64,000 nt of DNA, taken from IMG/VR virus record IMGVR_UViG_3300009826_000020, positions 19,019-83,018 of that record; one strand, written 5' to 3'. Position 1 is the stretch's first letter. Each line of letters starts with the position of its first letter. This DNA is from a virus (Duplodnaviria > Caudoviricetes). The notes below the pieces were generated by a model. It had not been told where the DNA came from. It saw only the letters and a list, made by a program, of their open reading frames with translations, and ran no database searches. The translations under genes and the position numbers were made by a program. Positions 24,332 to 64,000 of the stretch are shown here, in pieces.

Positions 24332-27156
24332 TTGCTACCGTCCCATACCTTGGCTGGTACCCATCCACCAGCCTGTTCCATGGTGGCCTCAGAGATGAAC
24401 CTGAAGTCTCTGATGATGAAATCGACCTCGCCGCCTATCGGGCCGGTCCCCCCTGGTCCTTGCCCGCCCGTCCCTGAGATCCACAGGTTCATGTCAACGC
24501 TGGGACCGTCATCACCGACATTGGCAATCGCCTGCCCGTCAGGGAATCCGTTCCAGGTGGCCCCAGAATAGCTGCGGGGCAACTGCGGGTTTGCCTTCCA
24601 GGTGGACGGGCTGCCGGTCGGAGAGGTCCAGGTAACCGAGCGTGGTGGTCCTGAGCGCCAATCGAACCAGTGCTTGGTGGGCAGTGGCGTGTCGGCCTCG
24701 GTGTACCGGAGATCGGCCCCATTGATGCTGGGTCCTGACCAGAAGTAGTCCCGCCACTCTGTATAGGCGGGATCGGGCACGATGCTCGGCCAGGAAGACC
24801 AGTGGCCGTTGGTGGGCTGTGGGTAGCTCCACCTGGCGAACTCAATGTCGATCTCTCGGTTGCAATAATCCCAGGAGTCACTGGAGCGAGAATCCCAGGT
24901 GAACAGTCCCACCACCACATTGAGGGGCACTGGATCAACCGGCGTGTCCAGTGTCCACTCGTACCTGCCGTAGCCGAAGTTGTTTTTGCTGATAATCTCG
25001 GCGCACTCCCAGCCATTACGGGAGGCGTTGTAGGCGATTTTCAGATGGAGCCGGTCCTGGCCGTCAATAAACACCATGTTGTTAGACCAGAAGTTGTTGC
25101 CGGGTCCGACCCTTTCCCCGCCAGCATTGCGCTTGACGTTCCACTCAATGCCCTTCCACATGAGGTTGGATGACCCACCATTACCGAAGAGGGCGTAATT
25201 GCGATCTGCTGCTGGTGTGCCATATTCACGTATACCGCTGATGTCTCCACCCCATCGCCGCAGATTTCCTGATGCCCACTTCGTGCCATCCCACGCCTTG
25301 ACCGGACCAGGAGGCAAAGCTTCTACGAATGGCCCACCACGGAGGTTGTCCCAGCGTGACGTGTTCTCGGACAGTTCAATGCCAATAGCACCCGTTGTCC
25401 AAGAGGTAGCTGGTGAACCGATATTGGCAGTGCTGATGACCTCCGTCCAATGGCCACCGCTCGGACGACGGCCCACGGCGAGGACATTGCCCCGCTTGGC
25501 AAACCAGAGCGAATCACCGCTAGCAATTCCCGGTGCGATTTCACCGGCCAGGTTGGTTCCCACACCGGCAACCTCACGGCTCAGATACCATTCTGTCCCA
25601 TACTGAGCGAGACGGAGGCCGGTCTGTTCCGAACCAGGGTTCTGCAACATTATCCAGAAGGAGAACTGGGCACCGCCAGGACTGGTCACGCAGTCGATCA
25701 ATACATCGCAGTCAGGCCCTTGCAATTCCTTGAAGGTGGGGCGCACGAAGCCCTGGTTCCAACCGCTGGCAGTTTGTCCAAGCGTGTTGCTGATAACCCG
25801 CAGACTGCCGGGATAGCCAGAGTTGATCCAGCCGCTGACCCAAATGGGCGCACCGTCCCCGGCGTCGAGGTTACCGTCAGTCCGGTTGAAATTATCGATC
25901 AGGTCTTCATGATCCGGTTCAGGTCCGGTAATAGCAAGAGGCCCGCCCCGAAGATCGTCCCACCGCTGGGTGGCGTCGGTTACCTGAAGACCGAAATACC
26001 CGTCAGCCGGGAGGTACAGATTCGATGTGGCGGTGAAGAGTTGTGTCCACTGCCCACTGGCTGGCTTGGCATAAGCAGTGAACACGTTCCCACGCTTGGA
26101 GAACCACAACTCCTCATTGGCAGTAATGCGGTGTGCGATGCCACCGATATAGGTCCACTGCGTGTAGTCGGTCCCCTCGATGAGGTACAGGAGGAGTTCG
26201 CCTTCATAAATCTGCCAGCCCCAGGTTTTCATGTTGCTGGTTTCGACGTTGTTCGCCAGCATGTACCAGGTGACTACATCGTCTGCTGCCTGATCCGGCG
26301 GTACAACGCATTTGACGATCAGGTCGCAGTTCTCTCCTTGGATTTTCTTCTTGGAAGTTGTGCTCTCCCAGTTCTGGCCGGTGGGGCTGCCGAGGGTATT
26401 GCCAATGACCTGGAAATCAGACGCCCAACTACCCCAAGCACTGTGACCGGTCCAGATGTCCGCTCCTGCACCGTCTTGTACTGGCCCGTTGGCCCGATTG
26501 AAGTCATCGATTAGCTCATCGTATTCCGGTGGGTCTACTGGGGGCGGCTGCTCCTCGGTGATCTCGATGGTGTGCGCCCGATAGGGCGAAGAGGAGAATC
26601 CGGTCACCGTGTCTGCTGCGGGGTTTGCTGCCAGTCCTGCCCTGGTGTGGACCGCCATGAGTGCCGAGGCCCCAGCAGGCTGGGCAATGCTGTTCGTCCA
26701 CCCTGAGGGAGGAGAGCCAGCGGTGTTGGCGTGTGCCGCCCCTCTGGTCACCACCCTGACGCCCATTGATGTCCCACCTGTGGTGGAGAGAGTCAGCGCT
26801 GGATAAATGGTGTTGGTCTGGTTGTTGGCATTTCCGCTTGAGGATCCACCGGTAGGAACAGCTAGGGTTCCGCCGTGACTGGAGCGCAGGACAAGAACGC
26901 AGATGTGGCTGGCGTTTGCTGAGGTGACGGTCCCATGATTCGAGGCCGTCGCTTTTGTCCACGCAGTGACCAAGGCGAGGGTGTTTGCTGCGCCGGTCTG
27001 GAGGCTCGTAAAGGTCAGCCCGGAAATAGTGGGGAGGCTGTTTGCCGTATTGTTCGCCCGCCGAGCCGTGACCAGGATCAGATCGCCAGCCTGATGGGCT
27101 GGCATAGCGACATTGGTGGCTGCTGCCGAAGCACTACTGGCAATCGTGATGGTCAT
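24322..27156 (-). CDS. tail fibre / receptor-binding protein with two ConA-like repeats and C-terminal GH16-like domain
   Basis: LIDDFNRANG and LIDNFNRTDG repeats; FGYGRYEW...GLFTW...EIDIEF (24841-24855). Confidence 0.85.
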   Translation of the reverse strand: MTITIASSASAAATNVAMPAHQAGDLILVTARRANNTANSLPTISGLTFTSLQTGAANTLALVTAWTKATASNHGTVTSANASHICVLVLRSSHGGTLAVPTGGSSSGNANNQTNTIYPALTLSTTGGTSMGVRVVTRGAAHANTAGSPPSGWTNSIAQPAGASALMAVHTRAGLAANPAADTVTGFSSSPYRAHTIEITEEQPPPVDPPEYDELIDDFNRANGPVQDGAGADIWTGHSAWGSWASDFQVIGNTLGSPTGQNWESTTSKKKIQGENCDLIVKCVVPPDQAADDVVTWYMLANNVETSNMKTWGWQIYEGELLLYLIEGTDYTQWTYIGGIAHRITANEELWFSKRGNVFTAYAKPASGQWTQLFTATSNLYLPADGYFGLQVTDATQRWDDLRGGPLAITGPEPDHEDLIDNFNRTDGNLDAGDGAPIWVSGWINSGYPGSLRVISNTLGQTASGWNQGFVRPTFKELQGPDCDVLIDCVTSPGGAQFSFWIMLQNPGSEQTGLRLAQYGTEWYLSREVAGVGTNLAGEIAPGIASGDSLWFAKRGNVLAVGRRPSGGHWTEVISTANIGSPATSWTTGAIGIELSENTSRWDNLRGGPFVEALPPGPVKAWDGTKWASGNLRRWGGDISGIREYGTPAADRNYALFGNGGSSNLMWKGIEWNVKRNAGGERVGPGNNFWSNNMVFIDGQDRLHLKIAYNASRNGWECAEIISKNNFGYGRYEWTLDTPVDPVPLNVVVGLFTWDSRSSDSWDYCNREIDIEFARWSYPQPTNGHWSSWPSIVPDPAYTEWRDYFWSGPSINGADLRYTEADTPLPTKHWFDWRSGPPRSVTWTSPTGSPSTWKANPQLPRSYSGATWNGFPDGQAIANVGDDGPSVDMNLWISGTGGQGPGGTGPIGGEVDFIIRDFRFISEATMEQAGGWVPAKVWDGSKWI

Positions 27157-34373: not shown

Positions 34374-34500
34374 CTGACACCTCTTTGTCCTGGTCTTTGT
34401 CCTCCATCATTTTTGCATGCCAGTCGTTCAGCATTTTGACCACTATGGGAACAAGGGCGGCAACGATTGCGGCGAGAGCTTGCTGCCAGGCTGCGCTCAT
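34363..34500 (-). CDS. 45-aa single-TM protein (holin-associated candidate)
   Basis: ATGA overlap; QALAAIVAALVPIVV hydrophobic stretch + charged tail. Confidence 0.6.
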   Translation of the reverse strand: MSAAWQQALAAIVAALVPIVVKMLNDWHAKMMEDKDQDKEVSGGQ

Positions 34501-34856
34501 GTTTCCCGGTACCTCCCCAGCCGCCAGTTGGTGTAGGTGGCAAGCGCACTGAAGGCCATCGCCAGGAAGATCAGAGCGACACCCCATTTTGCATAGGTGT
34601 CGGTGACCCTAACGAGTTCGATCACGATGGCATAGATCCAGGCTGCGGCCACGATCAGCCACATCATGATTTTGCCGGTGAAGAGCAGGATCAGTAATGC
34701 GATGATGGTAGCAATGCCCGCTCCGAAAATCGCCCACTGGTCATAGAGAAAGTGGTCCCACGCCAGAATGGCCAACCCTACTGAAGCGATGATGTGCGTG
34801 GAGACACGCATGATGCGGTCGAAAGTGGGACGCATGAATTGAATTTTCACCACCAC
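34497..34856 (-). CDS. four-TM membrane protein (holin candidate)
   Basis: four hydrophobic segments in 119 aa. Confidence 0.7.
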   Translation of the reverse strand: MVVKIQFMRPTFDRIMRVSTHIIASVGLAILAWDHFLYDQWAIFGAGIATIIALLILLFTGKIMMWLIVAAAWIYAIVIELVRVTDTYAKWGVALIFLAMAFSALATYTNWRLGRYRET

Positions 34857-34862
34857 CCCACC

Positions 34863-35462
34863 TCACTTGAGGGCATCCTCTGGAGCCATCCCTTTCTGGA
34901 GGCGAGCGTAGACCGTGTGGTATTTCGCCCCGCAGCGAGGGTCCTCGATCCACTCAGGCAAGGATTTGGTTTCGCCCCAGGCTGTGATGCGTATGGTCTT
35001 CTGAGTGTTGCGACGTTGTTGTCGCTTAGGTATCCAAGTGCAGTTTTCTGGGGTATAGTTGCCATCGTTGTCACGTCGCTCGATGGTGAGGCCATCCTCG
35101 TAACCAGAGGATTTCGCCCAGGTGGCGAAGGTGCTGAACAATACCCACTCGTCACAGACCTTGATCCCTCTAGCGCCGTAGTTTTTATAGCGCTGGTTCT
35201 TGGGATTATTGCATCTAGCCCACATGGTGTCCCAGACACGGTATAGAGGTGTCTTGGACTGCCCGTGAGATTCAGCCTGTCGGCCCCAGCGAGAGCAGCC
35301 ACAGGATGTTGATCCTCCATTCTGGAGGAGGTCGTCTCGTACGAGTTTGACCGTTCCGCACTCACATTGGCATGTCCACTTGGGATGGTTCGGGTCGGTG
35401 AAGAAGGGGCCAGCGATGACAGTCCATCGTCCGATCTTCTTGTTGAGGGTGATCGTCTCCAT
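34863..35462 (-). mobile_element. free-standing HNH-type homing endonuclease gene
   Basis: GRWTV...CQCECG...SCGC, YKNYGARGIKVCDEW, TIERRDNDGNYTPENCTW; own TAGTGT -10 box; duplicated flank. Confidence 0.88.
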
Positions 35463-55429: not shown

Positions 55430-55705
55430 ATGCTCTTTTATCTGTGCATTTTTGCCATGACCAAATTGTGCGGGCCGCTCCTCGCCGGGGCAGGGGAGGC
55501 GGCGGGAGGGGAAGCTGCAGCCGGTGCTGCTGGCGGTGCAGCCGAGGGTGGTGCTGCGAGTGGCCTGGGTAGCAAGATGTGGAGTCAGGCGGGGTCCTCG
55601 GGTGGGCAGTTGGTCCAGAGTGCAGCCCACGGCATTGCCGGAGCCATCGGGACCGGCCCGAACTACGAGCAGGTCAACATCGGTTCAATCAGCCACGCCA
55701 CCTGA
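55430..55705 (+). CDS. Gly/Ala-rich hypothetical protein (start 55430 or 55457)
   Basis: TAGGCT 7 nt before ATG 55430; followed by a hairpin. Confidence 0.6.
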   Translation: MLFYLCIFAMTKLCGPLLAGAGEAAGGEAAAGAAGGAAEGGAASGLGSKMWSQAGSSGGQLVQSAAHGIAGAIGTGPNYEQVNIGSISHAT

Positions 55706-55714
55706 GAAACGACA

Positions 55715-55740
55715 AGGCCCCCCAACGGGCTGGGGGGCCT
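55715..55740. terminator. hairpin at convergent gene ends
   Basis: perfect 10-bp stem AGGCCCCCCA/TGGGGGGCCT with 6-nt loop. Confidence 0.65.
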
Positions 55741-55788
55741 CATCTATGGCTACCAATGGCGCTACCAAACACCAAAGGAGAGACGACC

Positions 55789-56109
55789 TCAAGGGTCACC
55801 CGTCAGTATACCGGTCAGGACGCCTTGAGCAAGTCCCGGGGTGATGCCCCGCCGGGTCAGGCTGCCCCGTATGGCCTGGTAGGGGTGCCAGTTCATGGAA
55901 CGGGCGATCTCAGGCGTGCTGAGTCCCTGCAGGAAAAGTTCCACCGACACCTCGTCTCGGATCTGCACGTCCGACTCTGGCCACTTCGCCATGGGGGTGT
56001 CGGCGCACTCGATGCTGCACCAGGATCGGGCCGGTCGGTCATAGGCCTTGCGGAGGCCCAGAAATATCCCGCAGGACCGGCAACGTATTTCGATGAGGTC
56101 AGGATCCAT
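55789..56109 (-). CDS. Zn-finger + HTH protein
   Basis: CRSCG...WCSIEC; GLSTPEIARSM...IRGSLTRRG. Confidence 0.7.
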   Translation of the reverse strand: MDPDLIEIRCRSCGIFLGLRKAYDRPARSWCSIECADTPMAKWPESDVQIRDEVSVELFLQGLSTPEIARSMNWHPYQAIRGSLTRRGITPGLAQGVLTGILTGDP

Positions 56110-56392
56110 GGGACGGGTGCCTCTCTCTTGATTTAGCCAGGGCATTTTTCTTCACCACGTAGTCGATGGCGCAGACATAGCAATAGAACCGTGGCCCAGG
56201 AGCGTCGTCGTCCGAGCATTCGACGGCGACCTCAGCCCCATTCTGGCATTCACCCTCGGGCCGGTAACCGAAGGGCAGGGTGCCCTTGATGACGAGGGTC
56301 TGTTGCTGGTGGACGCTCAGTCCGTTCCAGCAGGGGAGTCCGAACCAGCTATCCCGCACGTAGTTTTCATCCTGGTCATAGAGTCTGGCCAT
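56099..56392 (-). CDS. Cys-containing hypothetical protein
   Basis: C...C...PRFYCYVCA; coupled. Confidence 0.65.
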   Translation of the reverse strand: MARLYDQDENYVRDSWFGLPCWNGLSVHQQQTLVIKGTLPFGYRPEGECQNGAEVAVECSDDDAPGPRFYCYVCAIDYVVKKNALAKSRERHPSHGS

Positions 56393-56589
56393 TAGCTCAC
56401 CTTCCTCAGTGCCGAGATCACGTCATCGATGTAGCTGATGGGGAAAACCGCCCCCGACATGTTTTCGCCCCCGGGTAGAAGATTGATCCCGACCCTGATG
56501 AGATCCTCATGTACGCCGGTATGGATCTTGGTGACCCTCACCTCCCGGTTGTCTCCAAGGGGCACTCGGCTCACGATCTTTGAGTCCAT
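56392..56589 (-). CDS. small protein, possibly PC4-like
   Basis: GGAG RBS; beta-beta-beta-alpha pattern (inference). Confidence 0.55.
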   Translation of the reverse strand: MDSKIVSRVPLGDNREVRVTKIHTGVHEDLIRVGINLLPGGENMSGAVFPISYIDDVISALRKVS

Positions 56590-56590
56590 T

Positions 56591-57214
56591 TTACTCCTCC
56601 TCTTCGTTGATTTTCGACCAGTACGCCTTTTCCAGATCTTTGGCCTTGATCCGCACGATGCTCTCGATGGTGGCGACACTGAGGTCCCCATAATGAGCCA
56701 TGTCCTGAACAGCGCTCACAGCCTTCTGGTGTGTTACCAGTGCAGCCTGCTCTTTGTCCCAATAGGCCTCGGGTTGGATTTTCCCTTTTTCTTCCCAGTA
56801 GGCCTTATCGATGGCCTCGTTACGGGCACGCTGTATATTTGGCTTCCCCAACCAGGCGTCCTTGGCGTTCGCATCCACCAAGGCTCTTACAGCATCAAAG
56901 AACTCCGAGAGGAATCTGACCTGGAACTGGATATCCTGTGGAGCGATTTTTCCAAGGACTTCATCGATCTCGTCCTTGATCACGTCCACATGTGGCTTGA
57001 TGCGGCGCTCGAAATACCAGAGCTTGCCATGAGCCTCTGGTCCTCCCGCATCCTCGATGGCCTCTGCTCGCTCGATCTCCCTGTCTTCCAGGTTGAATTG
57101 GGCCTTGAGCCGCTCGATCTGCCTTGTGGCAGCTTCTCTCTCGCCCGCACTGGTGGTGCTGGCTGCCAGCTTGGTCATCTGCATGATTCTGTCGATGGCC
57201 TCGGCTTTATTCAT
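56591..57214 (-). CDS. DUF2786-like N-terminal domain protein
   Basis: IDRIMQMTKLAASTTSAGEREAA.RQIERLKAQFNL; ATGA overlap. Confidence 0.75.
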   Translation of the reverse strand: MNKAEAIDRIMQMTKLAASTTSAGEREAATRQIERLKAQFNLEDREIERAEAIEDAGGPEAHGKLWYFERRIKPHVDVIKDEIDEVLGKIAPQDIQFQVRFLSEFFDAVRALVDANAKDAWLGKPNIQRARNEAIDKAYWEEKGKIQPEAYWDKEQAALVTHQKAVSAVQDMAHYGDLSVATIESIVRIKAKDLEKAYWSKINEEEE

Positions 57215-57585: not shown

Positions 57586-57819
57586 ATGGCTAACGATGAC
57601 TACCGTAAACTCCTGATCGAGACGGGGCAGCCCCAGGCTGATCTCGCCGCCAACACTGAGCAGACCTGGGATACCGACCAGCTACGGGCCGACTTCGAGG
57701 TGATCGGCTTCGCCGCCCCCTTCGTGGTGGTGCGCCGCAAGGCTGATGGCAAAAAGGGCACCCTCGAATTTGTGCCCGGTGAGCACCCTCGCCTCTATTT
57801 CGGCTGGGTGGAGGAATGA
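57586..57819 (+). CDS. conserved hypothetical protein
   Basis: ATG 7 nt after TACCAT; WDTDQLRADFEVIGFAAPFVVVRRKADGKKGTLEF. Confidence 0.8.
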   Translation: MANDDYRKLLIETGQPQADLAANTEQTWDTDQLRADFEVIGFAAPFVVVRRKADGKKGTLEFVPGEHPRLYFGWVEE

Positions 57820-58718
57820 GGATCCCCGACGCCCTCAAGGTTCGCCAGTGGTCTGAGAATCTCCTCCGACTCTCCTATGGAGGGCAGGAATTCGGATTCA
57901 AAGAGATGCAGACTGTGGTGGTGTCAAGGGATTTCTCCCGTTATGTTGCCGCCATGGCTGATCAATGGCCTCCGAATGACGTACTCGATTGGCCCTCGAT
58001 GGAGGATGTTGGTTGGCCGTTTCCTAACCATTCGACGCTCTTCGTCTTCGAGGAGCCGATCTTCATGGAGTTCCTCATAACCTCTGAGGACAATGAGGAG
58101 GCAAGGGTACCGATCATGCCCTTCAGGGATGAGCGGGAAGTTGTGGCCATGTTTTTGCTCGACAACAGGTTGATGAATATCAGTGTCGAGATTGACGGTA
58201 CGGCTAAAAGGCGTTTGGTGGTGCCACAGAATCAAGGTCCTTACAGGATGCAGGCTTCTGTCTTCATTCACCCTGACACCTCAACAACCTCGGGTTATTT
58301 CAACTGGGGCCTGGGTGTCACCCGGAATCCCGCCGAAGATCGCATGGGCTACTGCGCCCGGTGGGAACGATCCTTTGCCGAGGCTGTCGGTCACCGTATG
58401 TCTGTGGTGGCCGAGCCGCAGAATCTCCCCCGGCATGAGCGTCGGGCCATCCAACGCACAGAGGCCCCTTATCGGGTGCTTGACCTGCGTACCCCGGAGC
58501 GAGCCAAGGACAAGGCTGGGACTAGGAAGGTGGAATGGACAAAGCGCTGGGGTGTGCGGGGGCACTGGCGCAACCAGCCTTACGGTCCTCGGAAGGATCC
58601 GAAATACCGGCGGATCTGGATCGACTGGTTCCTTAAGGGGCCGGAAGACAAGCCCCTCGACATCCGGCCTACTATCTTCAAGCTCGACAACCCGTCCCCG
58701 AAGGAAGAAAATGGCTGA
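57816..58718 (+). CDS. hypothetical phage protein
   Basis: ATGA overlap; C-terminal WGVRGHWRNQPYGP...IWI...KGP motif. Confidence 0.8.
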   Translation: MRIPDALKVRQWSENLLRLSYGGQEFGFKEMQTVVVSRDFSRYVAAMADQWPPNDVLDWPSMEDVGWPFPNHSTLFVFEEPIFMEFLITSEDNEEARVPIMPFRDEREVVAMFLLDNRLMNISVEIDGTAKRRLVVPQNQGPYRMQASVFIHPDTSTTSGYFNWGLGVTRNPAEDRMGYCARWERSFAEAVGHRMSVVAEPQNLPRHERRAIQRTEAPYRVLDLRTPERAKDKAGTRKVEWTKRWGVRGHWRNQPYGPRKDPKYRRIWIDWFLKGPEDKPLDIRPTIFKLDNPSPKEENG

Positions 58719-61027: not shown

Positions 61028-61369
61028 TCAGTCTTCCTCCATTTTGATGATATTGCCTTCCCTGACTCGCATGACCGGGATCCCGCCCTTTAAGTGAGCG
61101 AGTCTCTGACGTACGAGGTACATCTCCTGAAACGCAGCGTCCAGCCCGTCGATCTGTGTCTGCCGGTCGGATTCGACCTCGACCTTTTCCAGCAGAGAAA
61201 TGATGTGGTGCAGTCGATCCTGCCAGGACATTTTTGCAGCACGTATTTTCCGAGCAGCGACAGGATGAGCATTCTCCATGTGCTCGGTCAGGTCGCCCTC
61301 GACCGTTGTGCCGCAAATGGCGCACCAGCCCGGTAGCGGTGGTTCAGGAACAGGTTCGACGTCACTCAT
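61028..61369 (-). CDS. hypothetical protein with C2H2-like finger
   Basis: CAICG...HMENAH; TAGGCT 9 nt upstream. Confidence 0.7.
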   Translation of the reverse strand: MSDVEPVPEPPLPGWCAICGTTVEGDLTEHMENAHPVAARKIRAAKMSWQDRLHHIISLLEKVEVESDRQTQIDGLDAAFQEMYLVRQRLAHLKGGIPVMRVREGNIIKMEED

Positions 61370-61399
61370 ACGGCTCTCAGCCTAACCTAGGCTTGGGGC

Positions 61400-61675
61400 A
61401 TGAGCGTGGCCCTGAATACGCACCAGTTCCAAGAAAAACCGAACCGGTTTATGCCCAAGACTCGTGTGCGTGTGGACAAGCTCGTCGCCACCCAGGGCAA
61501 GGTCAACGAGAAAAAGGTCCATGCCATCGCCCAAAAATCCCCCGATGAGATTTCCGCAACTCCCGTGGTGAGCAGTAGGCACAAGGGCTACTACCACGTC
61601 CTCGACGGCCACCATCGGGTGGGAGCCGCCATAGAGCGGGGTGACAAATACATCACCGTGAAAAGAGTCCGATGA
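61400..61675 (+). CDS. ParB/Srx-like N-terminal domain protein
   Basis: KLVATQ, PVV...YHVLDGHHRVGAA. Confidence 0.82.
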   Translation: MSVALNTHQFQEKPNRFMPKTRVRVDKLVATQGKVNEKKVHAIAQKSPDEISATPVVSSRHKGYYHVLDGHHRVGAAIERGDKYITVKRVR

Positions 61676-61902
61676 AGGGCGACCAGAAAAAGAAGACGCA
61701 GTCGAGGGTAAATGCTCGTACGCCCAGGGCCACAAATTGGTCGATGTTCTACGCCGGGACGAATGGTGCCCGTGATCCGGGCCAGTGGCCGAGCATTATG
61801 CGAAGGGCCTGGGAAGCCCGCCAGGGTGGCACACAGCCGTACCCTATGGCTGCTGACAACATCCAGAGCCGTGGCTCCAGAGCGGAGCAGTACAGCCGGT
61901 GA
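61672..61902 (+). CDS. hypothetical protein
   Basis: ATGA and GTGA overlaps. Confidence 0.6.
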   Translation: MKGDQKKKTQSRVNARTPRATNWSMFYAGTNGARDPGQWPSIMRRAWEARQGGTQPYPMAADNIQSRGSRAEQYSR

Positions 61903-62267
61903 GTGCTACGGCCCTCAATCCCCGGCAGTTCGAGTACATCGATGTGAAGGGTGAGTCGCATCAGGTGTCCTCGACTGACTATGGGGTGGGTCGTATATCG
62001 ATTGAGAAAATCAAGGGTGGCATGAAGGTTCGTCCTGATTGGCAGAGCCGTACTGATATTCCCTTTGAAGAGACGGCTGGGCCGTCAATAAATGAACCTG
62101 AGACTGCTCATGATCCTGATACTTGGAATGTCACCTACCCTCGCAAGTACGGGCCTCATTATCCGAGTGGTACGAAATATCACGTTCTGATGACCAATCA
62201 GGAGATGGCCCCTATACGTGAAGCTCGACGGCGGGTACAGCGGGCCAGGATGGCGGCAGTGCGATGA
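61899..62267 (+). CDS. hypothetical protein
   Basis: coupled; N-terminal ALNPRQF. Confidence 0.72.
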   Translation: MSATALNPRQFEYIDVKGESHQVSSTDYGVGRISIEKIKGGMKVRPDWQSRTDIPFEETAGPSINEPETAHDPDTWNVTYPRKYGPHYPSGTKYHVLMTNQEMAPIREARRRVQRARMAAVR

Positions 62268-62455
62268 GTCGCCACGCCAATTTCCTTCAGGGCTTCCATG
62301 AACACGCCCTCACCACCAACCAGTATTCCCCAGGTCCCCCTGGAGGCCCACCTGGAAAAGGCAAGGGTCACTACTTCGTCCCTGAGTCGAAAGGCTCCCA
62401 GTGGTGCTCTGTCTGCGGGCAGCACTCCACCACTACCTCCCATCCGAGCCGATGA
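62264..62455 (+). CDS. hypothetical protein (CxxC..H)
   Basis: coupled; GH.F...WCSVCGQH. Confidence 0.62.
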   Translation: MSRHANFLQGFHEHALTTNQYSPGPPGGPPGKGKGHYFVPESKGSQWCSVCGQHSTTTSHPSR

Positions 62456-63090
62456 GTCACGCCGCCCTCTCCCGCCAGCAGTTCCCGGTTCATTCCTGGC
62501 AGACGGCGGATCCGCCCCCCTTCCCTATCGGTCCTGCCTCTGCCCAACGGAAGTCAGCCGGGGATTGGATAGGAAAACACGTTCACTCCACCGTGAAGCC
62601 CTCTGAAGAAGAGGGGTCGTATGTCATGAGTTCCTCTGGCATAAATGCCGTGGCTCGTGGGGCGAGTGACGTGCCGCCGGAGTTTAGGAAGGAGATGCAG
62701 CCTATCATCAAGGCTGTCGATAAATCGATTGCCGGGAGTCATGTGGACGTCAATACGACGGCCTATCGAGGTCAGCCGAAATCCATCCTTGCCGGGAAAA
62801 AGCGTGGTGACATAATTACCGACCCTGGTTTTAGCTCGACATCGCTCCTGAACCGTACAGCCGAAAGTTATACGGGGTCCAGTGGTGAGGTTGCCGAAGT
62901 ACGTATTCCTCAGGGTACCGAGGTCGGTGCGCCCACGATGAACATCAACCGGCAGATGCACGGGGCTGGTCGAGGAAATGCCGATCAGGAACTCCTCCTC
63001 GGTCGAGGCAGAAAATACATGGTCACCCGCACAGGCCCCCACCCGAGGGTGGAAGTGGTGCCCCGCTATGAACAGGGGAAGCTGTTTTGA
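62452..63090 (+). CDS. ADP-ribosyltransferase, VIP2/C3/Alt-like (R-S-E clade)
   Basis: YVMSSSGINAVARG, AYRG, GFSSTS, EVRIPQG, DQELLLGRG. Confidence 0.88.
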   Translation: MSHAALSRQQFPVHSWQTADPPPFPIGPASAQRKSAGDWIGKHVHSTVKPSEEEGSYVMSSSGINAVARGASDVPPEFRKEMQPIIKAVDKSIAGSHVDVNTTAYRGQPKSILAGKKRGDIITDPGFSSTSLLNRTAESYTGSSGEVAEVRIPQGTEVGAPTMNINRQMHGAGRGNADQELLLGRGRKYMVTRTGPHPRVEVVPRYEQGKLF

Positions 63091-64000
63091 GTCATCGAGC
63101 ACTGAGTCTCCAGCAGTTTCCAGAAGGCGGGATACACGCCAACCCAGCCGGTCCCGTCCACCCCTACTTTCCCCAGAGGGGAGGGGATAAAGGTCCTTCT
63201 ACCGGGGTGCAGGGCAAATTCTTCAAGGATCCCAAGCCTGAGGCATCGGCACGATACCCACGGGGATATACGCCCGAGCGTATGCATGAGATCGTTGAGT
63301 CGGGCATCGAGGTCAACCCACCACGGTATGGAGGCAAGGGTAAGCCCCCACTGCCCGGTTGGAGTGAGTCGGGGGCATTCTCCGGCCCTGGTGGGACTGC
63401 TCAGGTCAGGCAGACTCTCGCTCGATCCACCATGCCACTGGAGGATCTTGAGACTCATGGGCCGAAGAATCCAGGGTATGGTGAAAAACTACCACTAGGT
63501 AGTCTCGTCACGATTAAAACCGGACAGAGGCTGAATGGTCTTGCAGGATTAACCAGTCTGGGTCGAGTCCAATTGGCTCCCAGCGGGATCTCTGGGGGCA
63601 AGGGTTCCGCCCGAGAGCAGCAGGCGGCACAGGGTGAGACGCTCATCCATGAAATGGGACATGCTGTTTCCTCTGCTCGTAATCTGCGGACTACTCGTGA
63701 ATGGGGTGAAGGAGGCAAAACTCCGACCGAGGAACGCCAAAATGTTGGGCGTGAGGAGGCCTTCGCTGACGATTATATGCGGACACATTTTCGTCCTGAT
63801 CCCCGTGACGTCCGTAGGGGTATAAAGGGGAGGAAGTGGTCAGGGTATGAAGACCCCCGGACTTGGCGTAATTACCAGGCCGGATGGGGTGTCGGTGGAT
63901 CGGTAAGAAGGCAAGGCACCCCTGTTAAGGGTGGGCAGACAGCGTACAAAGCCTATATGGGTGCCAGGAAAACTCCTATGGTGCCGTATGAGGCCGAACC
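63087..64000 (+). CDS. HExxH zinc metallopeptidase-like protein, truncated by the window end (not in ORF track)
   Basis: TTGA overlap; 304 open codons checked by hand; TLIHEMGH (63648-63662) ... REEAFADDY. Confidence 0.85.
   Translation, partial: MSHRALSLQQFPEGGIHANPAGPVHPYFPQRGGDKGPSTGVQGKFFKDPKPEASARYPRGYTPERMHEIVESGIEVNPPRYGGKGKPPLPGWSESGAFSGPGGTAQVRQTLARSTMPLEDLETHGPKNPGYGEKLPLGSLVTIKTGQRLNGLAGLTSLGRVQLAPSGISGGKGSAREQQAAQGETLIHEMGHAVSSARNLRTTREWGEGGKTPTEERQNVGREEAFADDYMRTHFRPDPRDVRRGIKGRKWSGYEDPRTWRNYQAGWGVGGSVRRQGTPVKGGQTAYKAYMGARKTPMVPYEAE

Follow-up and report, generated by a model that had tools for sequence, protein, structure and literature searches.

A short N-terminal peptide shared by unrelated enzymes in a clade of uncultured phages, a candidate address for loading into the virus head

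The 64,000-nucleotide stretch of viral DNA analyzed here (the window) is the final 64 kb of a contig of 83,018 bp in IMG/VR (record IMGVR_UViG_3300009826_000020; G000), for which completeness is estimated at 71%. Coordinates are those of the window unless marked as genome coordinates, which are obtained by adding 19,018. The window closes with an array of six separate genes of 63-304 aa each, all six coupled through 4-nt stop/start overlaps (ATGA, GTGA, or TTGA), and the contig ends inside the last of them. Four of the six coupled genes begin with a strict N-terminal M-S-x-x-A-L-[NS]-x-x-Q-F. Judged from sequence comparison, this tag is a modular docking peptide at the N-terminus of unrelated enzymes and is confined to one clade of phages. 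The tag may serve to load these enzymes into the virus head, a reading to which we assign a probability of about 0.4.

An earlier note on this DNA had reported tagged starts at 61400, 61899, 62452, and 63087, with an internal copy in the gene starting at 62264, and all of these peptides were found in the sequence. Its count of five tagged genes out of six needs some qualification: four of the tags are strict, the fifth gene carries an internal copy and a degenerate one in register, and the sixth, taken to be untagged, also has a weak internal copy. It had noticed no further copy in the window, and a six-frame search for AL[NST]xxQ[FY] likewise found just five places, all in the array. Across the whole contig the same search returned seven matches, where shuffled sequences lead one to expect 0.32. 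Five of the seven lie in the array, one heads g14, a gene beside the portal gene, and one falls in the capsid protein. The capsid match is treated as a coincidence, since the same segment is conserved in a tag-less relative. The possibility that the tag mimics one of the capsid segments ALTASQY or VLRFEQF was rejected, as both also occur in the tag-less Streptomyces phage GiJojo, and G002, a relative with 46% GC, has a variant form of ALTASQY.

Relatives of this phage were found by alignment-based and pattern-based scans of IMG/VR, and eight related contigs were retrieved whole. The tag-bearing relatives, 686,438 bp in all, contain 41 strict motifs where 2.9 would be expected. In 35 of the 41 the motif is preceded, at a distance of exactly four codons, by a start codon (binomial p = 1e-40), and five of the remaining six are N-terminal in a shifted register, which places 40 of 41 at the N-terminus overall. 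The approximately 50 tagged proteins, compared without their tags, comprise about 23 unrelated families. These include ParB/Srx-like proteins, an ADP-ribosyltransferase (ART), zincin metallopeptidases, GNAT proteins, 2H/LigT phosphoesterases, a weakly matched PARP-like protein, and many proteins of unknown function. The earlier proposal of a modular tag on unrelated proteins is supported, with a frequency far above background and signs of selection at the level of the peptide. The tagged proteins are small (median 116 aa) and nearly free of Cys. Each genome carries 2-10 tagged genes, and the usual operon consists of four to eight of them in succession.

The logo of 40 nucleotide-unique tags in the canonical register reads M1 S2 H3 R4 A5 L6 [NS]7 P8 [EQ]9 Q10 F11. 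Conservation drops sharply past F11, positions 12-15 are unconserved, and the residue after F is often Pro. Conservation in orthologs, which the earlier note had named as a check beside background frequency, also came out in favor of the motif: the tag is retained across orthologs of 30-66% identity, and orthologs of the HExxH protein (34-40% identity) keep it at the N-terminus with Q10 and F11 invariant. As a peptide it persists, encoded by different DNA, in G002 (46% GC) and in zincins from distant lineages. Codon use within the tags is varied, with six codons for Leu6, both the AGY and the TCN families for Ser7, and four codons for Ala5, indicating selection on the peptide; a DNA-level repeat was rejected on this ground. 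Ser2, present in 38 of 40 tags, is always encoded by AGY; the ATGA/GTGA stop-start overlaps largely account for this, the upstream stop codon being overlapped (NTGA) by 41 of 62 tagged starts. There are also conserved ORFs of 45 aa (L035:1152-1289 (+) and G007 24518-24655 (-)) made up of hardly more than the tag MSHQVLS[QS]QQF and a short acidic tail, and in G005 such an ORF lies directly 5' of the tagged zincin gene. Such ORFs could be decoys, regulators, or remnants.

The tag carriers belong to a clade of uncultured, soil-type phages that are kin of Streptomyces phages. The nearest cultured relatives of this contig are the ~115-kb Streptomyces phages BRock, GiJojo, Alone3, and pSt2308, with a portal identity of ~55%. 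GiJojo possesses neither an N-terminal tag nor a homolog of any tagged family. When 596 Gb of prokaryotic genome sequence was searched with the canonical tag in a single codon spelling, 34 scattered singletons came back, mostly off ORF starts, and no cellular family or prophage; we estimate this to be about chance level. The same pattern matched 17 times in the much smaller IMG/VR, where nearly all of the matches are true tags. Scans of IMG/VR with single proteins yielded nothing useful.

The first gene of the array (61400..61675 (+), ATG start, 91 aa) encodes MSVALNTHQF followed by a ParB/Srx-like domain with a DGHHR helix. It heads the operon in G000, G001, G006, G007, and G008, and its orthologs retain Q9 and F10. 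Matches to Pfam DUF6551 (3.6e-5) and ParBc_2 (0.007) are both under the cut-off, a PHROG match to ParB-like proteins has a value of 3.5e-6, and PDB profile matches go to the ParB/Srx domains of SbnI and serine kinases (E 0.025-1); the PHROG and PDB matches are weak but concordant. The AlphaFold2 model is of low confidence, with a predicted local distance difference test (pLDDT) score of 52. Of the domain assignments made earlier, the ART (above the Pfam cut-off) and the HExxH protein (a zincin fold) stand, while a ParB/Srx-like identity for this protein is weakly supported. The gene is preceded by a promoter-like element at 61383..61399 (+), in which the hexamer TAGGCT (61388-61393), a TAnnnT-type -10 sequence with the start codon 6 nt on, sits within the short inverted repeat AGCCTA...TAGGCT. 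Ahead of the gene that opens the operon, CCTAGGCTTGGGGC-[A/G]TG is conserved in five genomes. Within 61290-61399 and the orthologous regions of G001, G006, G007, and G008, the conserved inverted repeat, AGCCTAGGTG ... CACCTAGGCT, overlaps TAGGCT. We interpret TAGGCT and its inverted repeat as a candidate regulated promoter of a leaderless transcript.

The next ORF (61672..61902 (+)) encodes a basic protein of 76 aa that lacks the N-terminal tag and has a degenerate internal ATNWSMF at residues 20-26; an ortholog in G001 reads ATNISQF in the corresponding internal stretch. It gave no Pfam or PHROG match, and it is a conserved partner of the first gene in G001, G006, G007, and G008. It is followed by a tagged gene (61899..62267 (+), GTG start, 122 aa, MSATALNPRQF) whose body is a singleton family, for which Pfam, PHROG, and an atlas search provided no usable lead. 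An ORF of 63 aa (62264..62455 (+)) then starts with the degenerate MSRHANFLQGF, in which A5, Q9, and F11 stand in the tag register, and has ALTTNQY at residues 15-21; it too matched no Pfam or PHROG family. The tagged ART (62452..63090 (+), ATG start, 212 aa) consists of MSHAALSRQQF, a Pro-rich linker, and an ART domain from about residue 59, which scores 36.6 bits against PF03496 (cut-off 23.4). Its Arg (TAYRG) and S-T-S motifs align with those of the Vis toxin, and the third ART motif, at the E-x-E position, reads D-Q-E in the sequence. An ART ortholog, P0006 (66% identical), keeps a shortened tag, MTVLSSQQF. Another, the 236-aa P0008 from a 116-kb contig (48% identical), has no tag and instead a different N-terminal extension of ~70 residues with FSPDEARDDHGRW, which suggests that alternative N-terminal modules may substitute for the tag. 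The last gene (63087..64000 (+), TTG start, MSHRALSLQQF), cut at residue 304 by the contig end, encodes a tagged zincin paralog with QGKFF at residues 42-46 (63210-63224) and HEMGH at residues 188-192 (63648-63662), followed by EEAFADD.

The HExxH proteins are predicted to have the fold of a zincin (gluzincin-like) metallopeptidase. In alignments of the family H165, E166, H169, and E199, that is, HExxH and a downstream Glu, are invariant. An AlphaFold2 model of the paralog g14 has a confident zincin core, with residues 1-40 disordered and the tag not docked on the enzyme body. Zincins, drawn from many families, make up nearly all of its 50 best structural matches, the first being lugdulysin of family M30 (Z 7.8; root-mean-square deviation 3.4 over 134 residues), with no single MEROPS family assignable. 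Pfam searches with both paralogs gave weak Peptidase_M91 matches only and no membership in MuF/SPP1 gp7 (Phage_Mu_F). An exhaustive profile search produced 423 zincin clusters, and terminal motifs were counted on 148 representatives of these. Q[FY] occurs at residues 5-14 in 53 of the 148 (4.1 expected), 28 of which have the stricter tag pattern (0.3 expected), and within the last ten residues in 23 (4.4 expected). One distant relative is a giant protein of 3,478 aa, P0040, without a Pfam match. The GiJojo protein gp68, encoded upstream of its portal gene, was considered as an untagged zincin and rejected, being a different, beta-rich protein with no HExxH.

The argument for a head-loading role comes in part from where the tagged genes lie. 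A crude gene map together with Pfam and PHROG scans of the contig indicates a contractile-tailed phage. Its head module lies beyond the window, on the minus strand, and has the order large terminase, a block of small ORFs, g14, portal, scaffold, and major capsid protein. The tagged HExxH protein g14 (genome 8927-9796 (-)) lies just upstream of, and adjoins, an SPP1-type portal gene (genome 7188-8930 (-)); the scaffold (genome 6390-7187 (-)) and major capsid protein (genome 5336-6286 (-)) genes complete the module. In relatives the tagged zincin gene is found between the portal and scaffold genes (G001, G004, L010, L011, L107, L108, L109, and L124) or after the terminase gene (L114); tagged zincins at the portal, scaffold, or terminase genes were tallied at nine loci. 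The portal-scaffold slot is where genes for minor head proteins of the SPP1 gp7/MuF type lie. Only one untagged zincin has a resolved context (L129/L113), and it is flanked by ribonucleotide reductase and RecA. Tagged genes of several families also stand between homologs of g73 and g69, within the late structural operon, in G001, G004, G006, and G007, where stop and start codons overlap.

Several observations weigh against a head-loading role. The slot between g73 and g69 is a general insertion hot spot, since in this contig it holds an HNH endonuclease gene (34863-35462 (-); PHROG 374, E 9e-55), and the portal-adjacent zincin of G001 has lost its QF. The main tag array lies away from the head module, near genes for a DpdA-like protein and a hydrolase, and has its own conserved promoter-like element. 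In the wider zincin family QF occurs at either end of the proteins, which weakens any reading that depends on a free N-terminus and leaves a host hub viable as the target. Finally, no carrier of the tag or its cargo was found among cultured phages in tblastn and blastn searches with the zincin, the GNAT protein, and the first operon genes as queries.

A second short motif, QG[KRQ][LF]F, makes up the very C-terminus of several tagged proteins or stands behind the tag within the disordered tail. The ART of the window ends in QGKLF (63073-63087), P0006 keeps this ending, and several other tagged proteins also end in QG[KR]LF; further carriers of QG[KRQ][LF]F are encoded at genome 10005-10388 (-) of this contig, at L020:14013-14654 (-), and at G007 55517-56149. 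Among the 148 zincin representatives, Qxx[LMF]F lies inside the first 60 residues of 117 (1.0 expected), and Qxx[LMF][FWL] forms the C-terminal end of 22 (0.1 expected). PMC3716654 gives the bacterial beta-clamp-binding motif as QL[S/D]LF, usually C-terminal (Dalrymple et al. 2001, as cited there). It is this second motif, and not the tag, that resembles it, with Q1, L4, and F5 conserved, positions 2-3 free, and a placement at a terminus or in disorder. The two differ in the preference for Gly at position 2 and in their carriers, here effector enzymes of phages and not proteins of replication or repair. No gene for a phage-encoded sliding clamp was detected in these phages, so a clamp target would be that of the host. 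From these sequence patterns we infer that many of the effectors may dock on the host sliding clamp (DnaN); phage zincin peptidases addressing the sliding clamp were not found described in the open literature that was searched. A different explanation of QGKLF, mimicry of the scaffold C-terminus, was rejected, as the scaffold ends in ...SQSRRGQ and shows no resemblance.

Phage T4, one of whose packaged proteins is the ART Alt, offers a close parallel to a head-loading tag. Its internal proteins are diverse and share only a capsid targeting sequence (CTS) (PMC3012670). Like the tag described here, the CTS of IPI-III is an N-terminal peptide of ~10 residues and the only common feature of diverse, fast-changing, small anti-host proteins encoded side by side. 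The two sequences are unrelated, however, and the CTS is cut by the prohead protease gp21, whereas no such protease was detected here in the searches described below; the head in the present case is SPP1/P22-like with a separate scaffold and belongs to phages of another host lineage. Cargo-loading peptides of encapsulins are likewise short, are placed at either terminus of unrelated enzymes, and dock inside an HK97-fold shell. The presence of the QF motif at either end in the wider zincin family recalls this arrangement. In our case the motif is unrelated, and the shell would be that of a phage, complete with portal and scaffold.

The range of cargo enzymes recalls the polyvalent proteins of phages and conjugative elements (Iyer, Burroughs, Anand, de Souza, and Aravind 2017), for which the sections of PMC5512222 drawn on here describe hub domains (metallopeptidase, or MPTase, ART, DdrB-ParB, 2H, and MuF) and predict packaging and delivery with the DNA. 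The same repertoire is found in the tagged genes (a zincin MPTase with HExxH and a downstream Glu, an ART, a ParB-like protein, and 2H), together with the MuF-slot location. Here, however, the domains are carried by separate small tagged genes and not by one polypeptide processed by its MPTase, and those sections of PMC5512222 contain no counterpart of the tag. In Staphylococcus phage 80alpha, an N-terminal motif of the capsid and scaffold proteins copies the leader of host L27 and is cut by the host protease Prp (PMC5744158). This is again a short N-terminal motif ending in Phe and common to non-homologous phage proteins. Our tag differs in being borne by enzymes rather than by the capsid or scaffold, in that no Prp was found in the contig, and in that the likely hosts are actinobacteria.

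Under the head-loading reading, a portable 11-residue docking peptide on a flexible N-terminal tail would mark a changing set of small, host-directed enzymes for one partner. The most likely partner would be a core part of the assembling head, such as the scaffold, the portal, or the inner capsid surface. The tagged enzymes would be loaded into the procapsid and would enter the next host with the DNA. The tag would probably be kept, with no dedicated prohead protease removing it. Inside the cell, many of the tagged proteins could then dock on the host sliding clamp by way of Q-x-x-L-F, either at the C-terminus or just past the tag. The complete scheme would amount to a split form of polyvalent-protein delivery, in which the tag loads swappable enzymes into a protease-less, scaffold-built head and Q-x-x-L-F parks many of them on the host clamp; we offer it tentatively, as rather unlikely to be right in its entirety.

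The alternatives differ in what is supposed to read the tag, and in the earlier note the tag had itself been offered as a possible site of maturation cleavage. Little favors that idea now: the residues past F11 are unconserved, and searches with working positive controls revealed no prohead protease of the S78 (PF04586) or ClpP (PF00574) type in five genomes, of which two are 98-100% complete. S77 (PF03420) also gave no match, but its control matched nowhere either. The zincin itself was the only family common to all genomes first examined, a sample biased by the fact that these genomes had been found through the zincin. As an obligatory tag protease it was rejected on the evidence of G006, a 98%-complete genome selected by the tag, which has 8-10 tagged genes and no zincin. 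A propeptide removed after Q-F, by a Prp-like host protease or by the phage zincin, which would keep toxic enzymes inactive until due, is for these reasons distinctly improbable. It would account for the sharp end of conservation at an invariant Q-F, as in leader peptides, and for the co-occurrence of a zincin peptidase with the tag in many genomes, and host Prp, which cuts after F in a motif common to non-homologous phage proteins, provides a precedent (PMC5744158). Set against this are the unconserved and often Pro residue past F and the failure of the modeled tag to dock on the enzyme body, besides the protease searches already described. We abandoned a host-mimic leader of the Prp/L27 type as the principal explanation because there is no Prp (PF04327) in the contig, a Corynebacterium control was without a match, and no cellular family turned up that starts with the canonical tag in the one codon spelling searched. 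In G002, the complete 46% GC genome, we noted a proteasome-beta/HslV-like protein (L026:16501-17139 (-), equal to G002 56501-57139) encoded two genes upstream of the portal, with a PF00227 score of 24.4 bits (cut-off 22.4) and an N-terminal region reading ...MTTIVA.... It was dismissed as a tag protease, being present only in G002 among the genomes examined.

Phyletic profiles set against GiJojo turned up no enzyme or receptor that is untagged, encoded together with the tag, and confined to the genomes that bear it; only the cargo was tag-specific, and the conserved untagged operon neighbors, the DpdA-like protein and the hydrolase, are also present in GiJojo. The partner of the tag would thus be a core phage part or a host factor. 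With a host factor as partner, no packaging would be involved, and the tag would act after normal expression in the cell, either as a docking or regulatory signal addressed to a host hub, a chaperone, or a protease adaptor or as a shared degron that shortens the life of toxic early enzymes. We judge this unlikely while taking it seriously. It would fit with the lack of a phage-encoded partner specific to tag-bearing genomes, with the promoter-like element that the main array has outside the structural genes, with the QF found at either terminus in the wider zincin family, and with the fact that tagged proteins already carry a second motif resembling that of host clamp binding. Yet an N-terminal placement of 40 of the 41 strict motifs in the clade would be odd for a generic host-hub motif, tagged genes lie within head and late operons, and L-[NS]-x-x-Q-F is not known to match any bacterial hub motif. 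It seems very improbable that the tag is recognized by a modifying enzyme encoded with it, much as one maturase acts on many tagged substrates; the tagged GNAT protein, acetylating the N-terminus at Ser2, would be an example. The near-invariance of Ser2 (38/40) and the standing of GNAT as the most widely shared cargo (G001, G002, G005-G008, and L041) speak for it, but the AGY codon of Ser2 is largely explained by the stop-start overlaps, the GNAT protein bears the tag too and did not turn up in G003 or G004 (both incomplete), and the profile comparison left no untagged enzyme for the role. We find it hardly credible that the shared start is a nucleic-acid element, such as a re-initiation context or recombination joint, or a remnant of gene duplication, and not a functional peptide. 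Overlap with an upstream stop (NTGA) at 41 of 62 tagged starts, the constant AGY second codon, and the rapid turnover of cassettes in the arrays are what one would expect of such an element; the codon variety at Leu6, Ser7, and Ala5, the unrelated bodies of the proteins, and the survival of the peptide in different DNA in the 46% GC relative and the distant zincins are not.

Should the tag indeed be a head-loading address, it would represent T4-style targeting of diverse cargo in the SPP1/P22-type, protease-less head of kin of Streptomyces phages, and would offer a possible means of packaging foreign proteins in these phages. Injected anti-host effectors would then be recognizable from their sequences in actinobacterial phages too and, with the clamp motif, so might their target site. 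Whatever its partner, the tag defines about 50 fast-evolving effector candidates, the majority without a known function, and the second motif suggests that the host sliding clamp may be a hub targeted by a phage zincin family of 423 clusters.

Some minor observations concern sequences near these patterns. Tag-like starts beyond the strict pattern head ORFs at 57816-58718 (+) and 34497-34856 (-), reading MRIPDALKVRQW (a Trp variant) and MVVKIQF, and some zincins have a D-W variant in alignment with the Q-F of other members. With regard to insertion hot spots in the late operon, an HNH gene in L109 lies directly after the portal gene. A third recurrent motif, [LF][FH]HDRR, which EG[KR]R often follows, is present in small ORFs that separate the terminase gene from the portal gene and also at the ends of certain array genes. 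Its sites include genome 11959 and 12141 (-) of this contig, outside the window, as well as G001 4654, 6411, 23564, and 23818 and G003 13387 and 14248, and it is found at the N- or C-terminus of 12 of the 148 zincin relatives, with 0 expected.

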